Positions 3-24,500 of a DNA stretch of 64,000 bases are shown one piece after another (position 1 is the first letter of the stretch; each line of letters starts with the position of its first letter). The notes under the pieces were generated by a model that was given only the letters and a program-made list of their open reading frames with translations, was not told the DNA's origin and searched no databases. The position numbers and the translations under genes were made by a program. The DNA is from Bacilli bacterium (GTDB taxonomy: Bacteria; Bacillota_I; Bacilli_A; ML615J-28; CAG-313), in the NCBI GenBank assembly GCA_017501465.1, contig JAFVWY010000018.1, positions 77,829-141,828 on the forward strand. The letters are read 5' to 3'.

Positions 3-863
3 GTTATTTATCAAAAATGGGGTGAGACTGAACAAGACAAAAAAGAAGTTGTTAAAACTACAATACTAGAACATAAGGTTATTGATGAATTTGGTAATGA
101 GATTATCATTACACAAGTACTAGAACATTCATCTTCCCTTAATTCACTAGCTAGTCCTAGTAAAGATCATTTACTTGGAACTGATGCAGATGGATATGAT
201 GTATTTGTTAGAATTATGTATGGTGGTAGAATTTCCCTTACAATTGGTTTTATTGTTGTTATATTAGAAACAATTATTGGTATTTTCCTAGGAGGTATTG
301 CTGGATACTTCGGTGGTTGGGTTGATCAATTAATTATGCGTATTGTTGATATTTTTAACTGTATCCCAACATTACCAATTCTACTTATTGCTTCGGCGTT
401 AATTGATTCATGGAACTTAGAATCTAATCAACGTATATATGTTTTAATGGTTATTATTACGATATTTAGTTGGAGCGGAATTGCTAGAATGGTAAGAGGA
501 CAAATCTTATCATTACGTGAACAGGAATTTATTGTTGCAACTGAGGTAATGGGTTTACCTACTTGGCGTAGAATTTTTGTTCATTTAATTCCAAATGTAA
601 TGCCACAATTAATCGTATCAATGACACTTGGTTTAGGTAGCGTAATTTTATATGAATCAACTTTAAGTTACTTAGGTTTAGGTGTACAACCTCCACAAGC
701 TGCTTGGGGAACTATGATTGCTACATCTAATGATCCACAAGTATTAAAATATCATGCTAACATGTGGCTTCCTGCTGGGGTTATGATTGTTATTGCTGTA
801 TTAGGCTTTAACTTTGTTGGCGATGGTTTAAGAGATGCAATGGATCCTAAGGCTAAGAAGTAG
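3..863 (+). CDS. oppC: Oligopeptide ABC transporter permease OppC, 5'-truncated at the window edge
   Basis: The frame is open from nt 3. Translation contains the OppC signature ...HLLGTDADGYDVFVRIMYGGRISL... and an ABC TMD core (EAA-like loop 'SLREQEFIVATEVMGLPTWRRIFVHLIP'). It is followed within 9 nt by oppD. Confidence 0.85.
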   Translation, partial: VIYQKWGETEQDKKEVVKTTILEHKVIDEFGNEIIITQVLEHSSSLNSLASPSKDHLLGTDADGYDVFVRIMYGGRISLTIGFIVVILETIIGIFLGGIAGYFGGWVDQLIMRIVDIFNCIPTLPILLIASALIDSWNLESNQRIYVLMVIITIFSWSGIARMVRGQILSLREQEFIVATEVMGLPTWRRIFVHLIPNVMPQLIVSMTLGLGSVILYESTLSYLGLGVQPPQAAWGTMIATSNDPQVLKYHANMWLPAGVMIVIAVLGFNFVGDGLRDAMDPKAKK

Positions 864-871
864 GTGATAAT

Positions 872-2035
872 ATGGCTAGTAAAAATAAACATTATATTTC
901 TATCAAAGAAAGTAGAGAGATTATTAAATATAATATTAAACAAATGAAGTATTATGAATCTCTTAAGAAAAGAAAAGCAAATCAAGATGAATATATAGTA
1001 CCTATGAAAGATAGTAATAATTTAATTGAGATTGATAATTTAAAAACTGTCTTCTTTACTGATAATGGTACTGTTATGAGTGTAAATGGTGTTTCATTTG
1101 AAATTCCTAAAAATAAAATTGTAGGTGTTGTTGGTGAGTCTGGTTGTGGTAAATCTGTGACTTCTTTATCAATTATGCAACTAGTACAAGCTCCACAAGG
1201 TCAAATCATTGAAGGTGAAATTAGATTCAATTCAGATAGTTTACAAACAAATAATGTAAATCAAAAACTAGGCTATAATATTGCAAAAATGCCTACACAA
1301 GAAATGTATAATATTCGTGGAAAAGATATAACAATGATTTTCCAAGAACCAATGACTAGTTTAAATCCAGTCTTTACAATTGGATATCAACTAGATGAAG
1401 TATCTTTTGTACACAAACCTGGTGTTACAAAAGAAGAAGCAAAAGCTCACAGTATTGAAATGTTAAATAAAGTTGGTATTTCAATGCCTGAACATGTATA
1501 TAAATCTTATCCTCATGAATTATCTGGTGGGATGAGACAAAGAGTAATGATCGCTATGGCTTTAGCTGGTAATCCAAAATTAATTATTGCAGATGAACCA
1601 ACTACGGCTTTAGATGTAACAATACAAGCACAAATTTTAGAATTATTAAAAGACATTCAAAAGAAAGAACAATGTTCTATTATGTTAATAACACATGATT
1701 TAGGTGTTATTGCGGAAATGGCAGATTATGTTGTTGTAATGTATGCAGGAAAAGTTATTGAAAAAGGTACTGCACAAGAAATCTTCCATAATCCACTACA
1801 TCCTTATACAATTGGCTTACAAAAGAGTAAACCATTAATCACATCTAGTTCTCAAAAACCTTTATATTCAATTCCTGGTCAAGTTCCTAATCCTATCAAT
1901 TTACCAGATAATTGTTATTTTAAAGGTCGCTGTAATAAATGTTGTGAAAAATGTAATGGTAAATATCCAAAAGAAATTAAAGTTTCAGATACTCATTATG
2001 TATCTTGTTACTTATATGAAGGAAGTGAGGAATAG
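872..2035 (+). CDS. oppD: Oligopeptide ABC transporter ATP-binding protein OppD
   Basis: Walker A GESGCGKS, signature LSGGMRQR, Walker B IIADEPTTALD, and the C-terminal Cys-rich OppD/F extension. RBS AGGTGA lies upstream of the ATG. Confidence 0.9.
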   Translation: MASKNKHYISIKESREIIKYNIKQMKYYESLKKRKANQDEYIVPMKDSNNLIEIDNLKTVFFTDNGTVMSVNGVSFEIPKNKIVGVVGESGCGKSVTSLSIMQLVQAPQGQIIEGEIRFNSDSLQTNNVNQKLGYNIAKMPTQEMYNIRGKDITMIFQEPMTSLNPVFTIGYQLDEVSFVHKPGVTKEEAKAHSIEMLNKVGISMPEHVYKSYPHELSGGMRQRVMIAMALAGNPKLIIADEPTTALDVTIQAQILELLKDIQKKEQCSIMLITHDLGVIAEMADYVVVMYAGKVIEKGTAQEIFHNPLHPYTIGLQKSKPLITSSSQKPLYSIPGQVPNPINLPDNCYFKGRCNKCCEKCNGKYPKEIKVSDTHYVSCYLYEGSEE

Positions 2036-24466: not shown

Positions 24467-24471
24467 AAGTT

Positions 24472-24500
24472 AAAGGGTATCTTAGATACCCTTTTTCTTT
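24472..24500 (+). terminator. Rho-independent terminator ending the giant-lipoprotein operon
   Basis: aaagggtatcttagatacccttttt: 10-bp perfect stem (aagggtatct/agataccctt) plus a T-run, 6 nt after the stop at 24466. Confidence 0.85.

Follow-up and report, generated by a model that had tools for sequence, protein, structure and literature searches.

The first 24.5 kb of a 64,000-bp stretch of contig JAFVWY010000018.1, from a Bacilli bacterium, carry genes for an oligopeptide importer (Opp), a small membrane protein, a giant S8-family protease (G1) and four further giant lipoproteins (G2 to G5). We analyzed the whole stretch, here called the window, and read the region 5′ of it on the parent contig of the same strain (L009). 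The results suggest that these genes belong to one transcription unit of ∼29.5 kb and 12 genes: a Flg_new lipoprotein gene, oppA, oppB, oppC, oppD, oppF, the small membrane protein gene and G1 to G5. We propose that the unit encodes a protein-foraging system, consisting of the protease, binding lipoproteins and Opp, in a wall-bearing, low-GC, uncultured gut Firmicute, and place the probability of this reading, which is derived from sequence, at roughly 55%.

Extent and boundaries of the proposed transcription unit

The junctions from oppC to G5 measure, in order, 8, 3, −29, 17, 1, 18, 30 and 29 nt, and a ribosome-binding site of the AGGAG/GGAGG type lies 5′ of each of the five giant genes. Our map of open reading frames (ORFs) agrees with an initial annotation of this DNA in its coordinates, its head-to-tail order and its gaps running from overlap to 30 nt (here, −29 to +30 nt). 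A scan with a terminator consensus returned no site in any intergenic gap between positions 1 and 24471, and the few terminator-like matches in that interval all fall within ORFs, at the frequency found in shuffled sequence. The sole convincing terminator is the one that closes the unit at 24472 to 24494 (+), with a 10-bp stem including 4 G-C pairs and a T-run, in line with the earlier statement that no hairpin appears before 24472. Behind it, a near-consensus promoter with an extended −10 element (TTTACA-17-TGnTATAAT; 24537 to 24565, +) precedes rpsF-ssb.

The unit is cut by the window edge and begins ∼5 kb upstream, where the parent contig carries the Flg_new lipoprotein gene, oppA and oppB. 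The genes 5′ of the unit are pheT, an amidase gene, an indigoidine-synthase-A-like gene and a 217-aa ORF. A strong terminator (L009 3960 to 3989) lies after the 217-aa ORF and before the Flg_new lipoprotein gene, which is itself preceded by a promoter-like site (TAGACT-17-TATAAT; L009 4042 to 4070), and no + strand terminator was detected on the parent contig from the Flg_new lipoprotein gene to oppC. Because terminators bracket the 12 genes and none lies in the gaps between them, we delimit a unit of this size, and its genes are predicted to be cotranscribed.

The 24.5-kb co-directional unit of the initial annotation is therefore real and tightly spaced, but it starts ∼5 kb before the window, and the agreement in strand carries no information. 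The + strand carries all credible genes of the window (1 to 64000), and each 2-kb bin has a positive GC skew, an extreme leading-strand gene bias, so that co-directionality is uninformative by itself. The signal above chance lies instead in the tight spacing and in synteny across species.

Other features of the region were also considered. In the oppA-oppB gap, ∼1.2 kb before the window (L009 7900 to 7928), an 11-bp inverted repeat occurs without a + strand T-run. By analogy with other opp operons, this stem-loop could act as an mRNA stabilizer or partial attenuator that raises OppA over the permease genes. Rfam and tRNA scans of the window returned no match, and hence no riboswitch or leader was identified. 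We rejected an origin as a mobile element, given the core-gene flanks (pheT upstream and rpsF-ssb downstream) and the lack of any integrase or transposase in view.

Conservation and variation across genomes

Scanning 185,579 species, with one genome per species, using an alignment of G2 yielded 105 confirmed loci. Gene order was counted in the 80 loci retrieved of these 105, of which 68 reach far enough upstream to be informative and the other 12 are truncated contigs. In all 68 informative loci, oppD, oppF, the small membrane protein gene, G1, G2, G3 and G4 follow one another in this order on one strand. The physical coupling of the protease block to Opp proposed earlier is thus borne out, with oppF and the small gene directly upstream of G1, on the same strand and at short distances, in every case. 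Median gaps are 1 nt for oppD-oppF, −14 nt for oppF to the small gene, 21 nt from the small gene to G1, 25 nt for G2-G3, 31.5 nt for G3-G4 and 26.5 nt for G4-G5. In the 19 loci in which the small gene and G1 are separated by at least 40 nt, no terminator hairpin was detected there; in these relatives, as in the window, the search revealed no internal terminator that divides the opp genes from the protease.

This arrangement is kept at locus GC contents from 27.6 to 59.6% and at G2 identities down to 36%. Two distant relatives (41 to 48% identity in G3) encode an S8-LRR protease, G2, G3, a G4 with Big_3 domains and a Flg_new giant in the same order. The block is therefore conserved among related genomes, and its variation is concentrated at the fifth position: of 58 loci, ∼50 have a giant lipoprotein ORF behind G4 on the same strand, with a sequence that varies and Cys-rich repeats in only some. 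The G1-G2 gap is bimodal: it measures ≤44 nt in 23 loci and is larger in 42, most of which have ∼580 nt. The wide gap is occupied by an inserted gene for a ∼187-aa lipoprotein (lipobox LFGC), for example at 6597 to 7160 of locus L007 and in ∼39 other loci; this protein has no Pfam match and is absent from the window genome and 22 other loci.

A metagenome scan with an alignment of the small membrane protein gave 134 confirmed loci, 44 of them long. A block consisting of the Flg_new lipoprotein (355 to 425 aa), an unusually long OppA (859 to 938 aa), OppBCDF and the small protein is conserved in all 44 long loci, and the genes 5′ of it vary between loci and are sometimes on the opposite strand. 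This contrast between a constant block and changing neighbors fixes the start of the unit at the Flg_new lipoprotein gene.

The exact proteins of the unit recur on same-strain metagenome contigs, among them a 227-kb scaffold, and a GenBank protein titled “MAG: Bacilli bacterium” (MAG, metagenome-assembled genome) is 100% identical to G4. Records of the carriers are titled Bacilli, Mollicutes, Acholeplasmatales, “Staphylococcus sp. CAG:324,” “Coprobacillus sp. CAG:698,” Christensenellaceae and Clostridia MAGs, and derive from the gut of human, goat, sheep, deer, reindeer, chicken, rabbit and mouse. Because MAG names at NCBI are inconsistent and unreliable, we make no order-level assignment of the carriers. 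One locus (L061) is titled “Candidatus Fimimonas merdipullorum,” a genus placed under Myxococcota in the NCBI taxonomy, yet it has the Firmicutes-type cluster.

G1, a predicted surface protease of the S8 family

G1 (3347 to 10846, +) encodes a 2,499-aa protein that begins with a lipobox signal peptide, continues through S8, PA, fn3_5 and Big_2 domains, an LRR_5 array and a helical region, and ends in a transmembrane anchor. The Peptidase_S8 domain spans residues 209 to 680 (Pfam, E = 2.5e-41), with the catalytic triad in Asp-His-Ser order: D218 (VAVLDSG), H293 (HGTHVAG) and S620 (SGTSMATP). A PA domain (residues 486 to 557, E = 3.1e-15) is inserted between H293 and S620, as the initial annotation held in calling the enzyme lactocepin-type, and it aligns with the PA insert of the C5a peptidase 7edd. 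Directly after the catalytic domain is an fn3_5 domain (residues 717 to 836; 30.7 bits versus a cutoff of 27.6), and the alignment with 7edd runs to residue 876. Over ∼700 residues (180 to 876), the closest solved relatives are C5a peptidase, SpyCEP and cell-envelope proteinase A (E = 7e-65 to 1e-56), in support of the same classification.

Beyond this region, the protein extends into an arm of ∼1,000 residues formed by a BspA-type LRR_5 array (E = 7e-133, in 8 stretches). Anchoring is predicted at both ends, by the N-terminal lipobox LFAC and by a C-terminal hydrophobic helix followed by KMRRKNKGGK. The C-terminus contains no LPXTG, the sortase anchor of cell-envelope proteinases, for which some lactobacilli have an S-layer-type anchor instead, and the unit revealed no rotamase or PrsA domain, the mark of the PrtM/PrsA maturation lipoprotein that lactococci encode beside the protease. 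We also considered G1 as a member of the NCBIfam SGO_0316/SGO_0317 LPXTG serine peptidases and dismissed it, the score being 251.7 bits versus a cutoff of 1400. Judged by its catalytic, PA and Fn3 features, G1 is an S8 enzyme of the cell-envelope-proteinase/C5a-peptidase type. The combination of S8, PA, fn3_5, Big_2 and LRR_5 was confirmed in two relatives; 70 orthologues were checked for length and catalytic motifs, giving a median length of 2,511 aa and the subtilase triad motifs in 69.

G2 to G5, the giant lipoproteins

All five giants begin with signal peptides ending in a lipobox (LFAC in G1, VVAC in G2, IVAC in G3, LMGC in G4 and LVAC in G5), and the lipobox Cys is invariant where relatives were aligned (C23 in 71 G3 relatives and C22 in 57 G4 relatives). 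Based on the lipoboxes, G1 to G5 are predicted lipoproteins of the Lgt/Lsp pathway. Searches of Pfam and NCBIfam found no catalytic domain in G2 to G5.

G2 (10848 to 13187, +; 779 aa) consists of Fn3-like and immunoglobulin-like (Ig-like) domains at residues ∼27 to 200, followed by a core of ∼580 aa. G3 (13206 to 16043, +; 945 aa) has three Ig-like domains (∼30 to 290) ahead of a core of the same family, and the two proteins are paralogous, with 24% BLASTP identity over 650 residues and an hhalign probability of 100% (E = 1.9e-42, 643 columns). The shared core has no sequence match in Pfam, NCBIfam or PDB. In an HMMER pass over 1.84 billion cluster representatives (50% identity), ∼60 match the whole G2 core, and because the remaining strong matches cover the Ig-like segment only, the core appears to be confined to this kind of locus. 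Confident structure models show Ig stalks that carry folds of a ligand-binding type, which in G2 and G3 may be LprG/LolA-like half-barrels. A Foldseek comparison of the G3 model with PDB gave mainly generic Ig arrays with low TM-scores and did not inform on the core.

G4 (16074 to 19499, +; 1,141 aa) has eight Big_3-type Ig domains (∼30 to 657), an all-beta region (660 to 1070) and a terminal Ig-like domain; in confident models, it shows small, 8-stranded, lipocalin/avidin-like barrels on an Ig stalk. G5 (19529 to 24466, +; 1,645 aa) combines Cys-rich RYYR-CCHC repeats, Flg_new repeats and unassigned beta-rich modules. About seven 51-aa RYYR-CCHC repeats (Pfam, 35.4 bits versus a cutoff of 27) are followed by five Flg_new domains (E = 3.3e-48) interleaved with two unassigned domains of ∼130 aa and by a C-terminal beta-rich array of ∼590 aa; G5 has no sequence match in PDB. 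At the DNA level, the Cys-rich repeats form a tandem array of 153-nt units at 19610 to 20640 (+), identified by translation. Their number differs between assemblies of the same strain (L001 and L002), one being without one unit and another having a scaffold gap there, which represents either real copy-number variation or assembly collapse.

The initial annotation described G2 to G5 as lipoproteins assembled from Big_2, Flg_new and Cys-rich modules that they share with one another. Their nature as lipoproteins stands, but G4 contains Big_3 domains, and Flg_new and Cys-rich modules are found in G5 only. Sharing holds for the G2/G3 core and for no other pair; a profile comparison of G4 with the G3 family matched in the signal peptide only, and we dropped the idea of modules common to all four. 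The annotation was correct in finding no family for these proteins: G2, G3 and G4 have no assignment in Pfam, NCBIfam or PDB sequences beyond Ig-like repeats, none of G2 to G5 matched a named family, and their homologue clusters (213 for G2, 165 for G3 and 125 for G4) are all unnamed. Homology searches did not distribute G1 to G5 among well-characterized, unrelated families.

The Opp importer and two associated proteins

The Flg_new lipoprotein gene (L009 4120 to 5244, ∼5.0 kb upstream of the window) encodes 374 aa with one Flg_new (internalin-B-repeat) domain. It is followed by oppA (L009 5247 to 7880, ending ∼1.25 kb before the window start), which encodes an 877-aa SBP_bac_5 protein. OppA of the source genome lacks a lipobox and carries a membrane helix at its N-terminus, and SBP_bac_5 aligns with it only from about residue 459 onward; comparison with PDB added weak matches to OppA. 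The window opens within the permease gene oppC, whose 3′ part is at 3 to 863 (+; BPD_transp_1, E = 1.9e-34) and whose full 345-aa product, with OppC_N, is encoded on the parent contig. The ATPase genes oppD (872 to 2035, +; 387 aa) and oppF (2039 to 3118, +; 359 aa) both encode ABC_tran and oligo_HPY domains, and their products are 38% identical. The complement of an Opp/Dpp-type importer is thus present, namely a family-5 solute-binding protein, a pair of BPD_transp_1 permeases, of which one carries OppC_N, and a pair of oligo_HPY ATPases, and by these domain assignments OppABCDF is predicted to be a canonical peptide importer.

Overlapping the end of oppF is a gene for a conserved small membrane protein of 79 aa (3090 to 3329, +; 73 aa from the ATG at 3108). 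Its N-terminus is basic, its sequence includes the motif Y-[IV]-DDGHT-[IV]-YNMD and a segment resembling KE[RK]RAAIKAA, and it closes with one helix whose last residues are LWL. D17, D18, G19, T21, M25, E44, P58, F67 and W77 are invariant among 25 diverse sequences, and Pfam and NCBIfam returned no match. The gene directly follows oppF in 68 of 68 genome loci and 44 of 44 long metagenome loci. Because it is kept there even where the giant genes are lacking, we assign it to the Opp block, and it may be an unrecognized accessory subunit of Opp.

Protein foraging as the proposed function, and competing explanations

In the proposed foraging system, G1 would be a membrane-tethered protease of the cell-envelope-proteinase type whose Big_2/LRR arm holds protein substrates while the catalytic domain cuts extracellular proteins into oligopeptides. 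G2 to G5 would be nonenzymatic partners of the protease that bind substrates or peptides and serve as scaffolds. Their Ig-like stalks would project binding modules from the membrane, namely the half-barrels of G2 and G3, the 8-stranded barrels of G4, and Flg_new together with other beta modules of G5. The peptides would then be imported by the unusually large, membrane-anchored OppA with OppBCDF. We infer the physical association of these proteins, the identity of the substrate and the nutritional purpose.

Cell-envelope proteinases and Opp together make up the classical proteolytic system of lactic acid bacteria. A role in peptide nutrition is further supported by a variant locus (L143) in which an oligoendopeptidase F gene (M3; 9619 to 11379) follows the Opp block in place of G1 to G5. 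RF39-type uncultured gut Bacilli lack several amino-acid pathways, and relatives of this kind are reported to have reduced genomes with many auxotrophies (PMC6784871).

A peptidoglycan wall is indicated by genes outside the unit. A 1,254-aa giant surface protein encoded in the window (36151 to 39915, +) has three Flg_new domains, two Big_2 domains and an Amidase_2 peptidoglycan amidase, and a similar aBig_2-Amidase_2 gene lies 5′ of the unit on the parent contig. Because of these Amidase_2 genes, the organism appears to be walled, even though some of its relatives are labeled “Mollicutes.”

Three observations weigh against the foraging proposal. The Opp block occurs without G1 to G5 behind it in ∼9 of the 44 long metagenome loci, in four arrangements; besides L143, these variants include a locus (L137) with a 1,503-aa protein (10232 to 14743) in place of G1 to G5, which has no Pfam match and was ruled out by comparison as a relative of G4. 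Opp can therefore do without the giants, and the coupling is usual, not obligatory; it is also one-way, in that G1 to G5 are always found behind the Opp block. Moreover, a 10/12 promoter-like match lies inside the unit at 3108 to 3137, although such matches are no more common than in shuffled sequence. Both of these points, together with a 64-kb window that is wholly co-directional, would fit a fortuitous adjacency in which unrelated surface genes lie behind opp on the leading strand and are transcribed independently. The identical order in 68 of 68 loci of distinct species, at median gaps of no more than 31.5 nt, and the terminators that bracket the unit, with none in its internal intergenic gaps, argue strongly the other way, and given this synteny we consider chance adjacency very unlikely and give it almost no weight.

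The third observation is that the solved relatives nearest to G1, C5a peptidase and SpyCEP, cut host immune proteins, not food proteins. G1 might accordingly cleave host defense proteins, with its LRR array and G2 to G5 acting as adhesins to mucosal or matrix proteins and the linkage to Opp being secondary. The LRR_5 repeats are BspA-type, G1 matches the model of the adhesin HupY/LrrG (E = 2.2e-41, below the model cutoff), Flg_new is an internalin B-repeat and the carriers all come from animal or human gut samples. We nevertheless regard this role in host interaction as unlikely. A purely adhesive or evasive role would hardly account for the strict, tight linkage to a complete Opp across 28 to 60% GC, and the G2 to G4 cores are 40 to 50% identical across human, goat, deer, chicken and rabbit, with variability limited to position 5, whereas host-specific adhesins usually diversify.

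It is less probable that G1 mainly processes the giant lipoproteins and assembles them into a major structural or protective envelope layer, a self-contained dentilisin-like coat, with Opp as a mere neighbor in the operon. G2 to G5 show no sequence relation to PrcA or PrcB, there is no evidence of processing sites, and a coat would leave the constant upstream Opp, the additional lipoprotein and the small membrane protein unexplained; such a coat is partly compatible with foraging. The LprG-like and lipocalin-like folds of the structure models, together with the loss of fatty-acid synthesis in RF39, would fit the scavenging of hydrophobic compounds, in which the G2/G3 half-barrels and G4 barrels capture lipids, fatty acids or vitamins, freed by the protease from lipoprotein or food particles, for an organism unable to synthesize them, a role that we consider quite improbable.

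We return to protein foraging as the preferred explanation. An operon of ∼30 kb in fixed order across 28 to 60% GC is likely central to feeding or persistence in the gut. If the unit is a true foraging machine, proteins or peptides would be suggested for culture media, three unannotated protein families would be defined, and the link between hydrolysis at the surface and import could be modeled in a Gram-positive system. A more ambitious form of the proposal, which we offer only tentatively and find rather doubtful, is that all parts are assembled in one surface “protein utilization” complex that captures and cuts proteins and channels the peptides directly into Opp. Besides the protease, the enlarged OppA with its partner lipoprotein and the 79-aa membrane protein, its parts would comprise three new families of giant binding lipoproteins, represented by the G2/G3 core, the G4 barrels and the variable fifth protein. 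Such a complex would be a Gram-positive, protein-directed counterpart of a Bacteroidota polysaccharide utilization locus, and could be the main nitrogen or amino-acid route of prevalent, uncultured gut lineages with reduced genomes. Concrete, testable leads are offered by the S8-LRR fusion and by the conserved small protein of the Opp block.

Other genes in the window

Downstream of the unit, an 832-aa ORF (45914 to 48412, +) joins a complete GdpP-type c-di-AMP phosphodiesterase in frame with ribosomal protein L9, with no stop codon between them. Its PAS_GdpP, GGDEF_GdpP, DHH and DHHA1 domains (residues 101 to 676) are followed by L9_N (685 to 730) and L9_C (746 to 830), and dnaB comes directly after the ORF. 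The ORF resembles a fusion of the gdpP and rplI genes, or a case in which a stop codon was lost. Three ORFs had no Pfam match at the thresholds used: 30656 to 32761 (701 aa), 34893 to 35234 (113 aa) and 35296 to 36045 (249 aa), all on the + strand.

Comparison with known systems

The PrtP/lactocepin-PrtM-Opp system of lactic acid bacteria resembles the unit in having a surface S8 enzyme with a PA insert and Fn3-like domains that supplies oligopeptides to OppABCDF. The catalytic region of G1 aligns with cell-envelope proteinases at about E = 1e-60, and the Opp parts are canonical. Lactic acid bacteria keep prtP/prtM and opp at separate loci, whereas here protease and importer genes are in one unit, which lacks a PrtM/PrsA maturase gene as well as an anchor of the LPXTG or S-layer type. 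In place of such an anchor, G1 carries a lipobox and a C-terminal membrane helix; it also has the BspA-type LRR arm of ∼1,000 residues, and the four giant lipoproteins, the Flg_new lipoprotein and the small membrane protein are without a counterpart in lactic acid bacteria. The streptococcal enzymes ScpA/ScpB and SpyCEP share the catalytic domain, the PA insert and the first Fn3-like domain with G1, but these virulence factors are attached to the wall through LPXTG, act on a narrow set of host substrates and are each the product of a single gene. BspA-type LRR_5 surface proteins have in common with G1 a strong repeat array, from which G1 differs by its fusion to an S8 protease.

In Treponema denticola, dentilisin (prcB-prcA-prtP) is a lipidated subtilase encoded in an operon with accessory lipoproteins, and it forms a surface complex (PMC8167434). 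It is the best precedent for how the present system might operate, but it belongs to a spirochete outer membrane, its partners are much smaller and it has no link to Opp; for G2 to G5, homology to a named family was not detected. The polysaccharide utilization loci of Bacteroidota follow a similar logic, with an importer, a lipid-anchored hydrolase and binding lipoproteins on Ig stalks, although this is an analogy only. The G3 model matches Bacteroides ovatus SGBP-B among Ig-array proteins, a homology limited to generic Ig folds. Those loci act on glycans through SusC/D, whereas protein and an ATP-binding cassette importer are proposed here; the unit contains no TonB-dependent transporter or SusD, and its carriers look Gram-positive-type.

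A targeted literature search (protease, oligopeptide and lipoprotein in RF39 and uncultured Firmicutes) found no account of the cluster. G1 and the Opp components are of kinds already known. What is new is the conserved joining of the Opp block and a cell-envelope proteinase in one unit, the S8-LRR_5 architecture, three unassigned families of giant lipoproteins in fixed order and two extra proteins associated with Opp.

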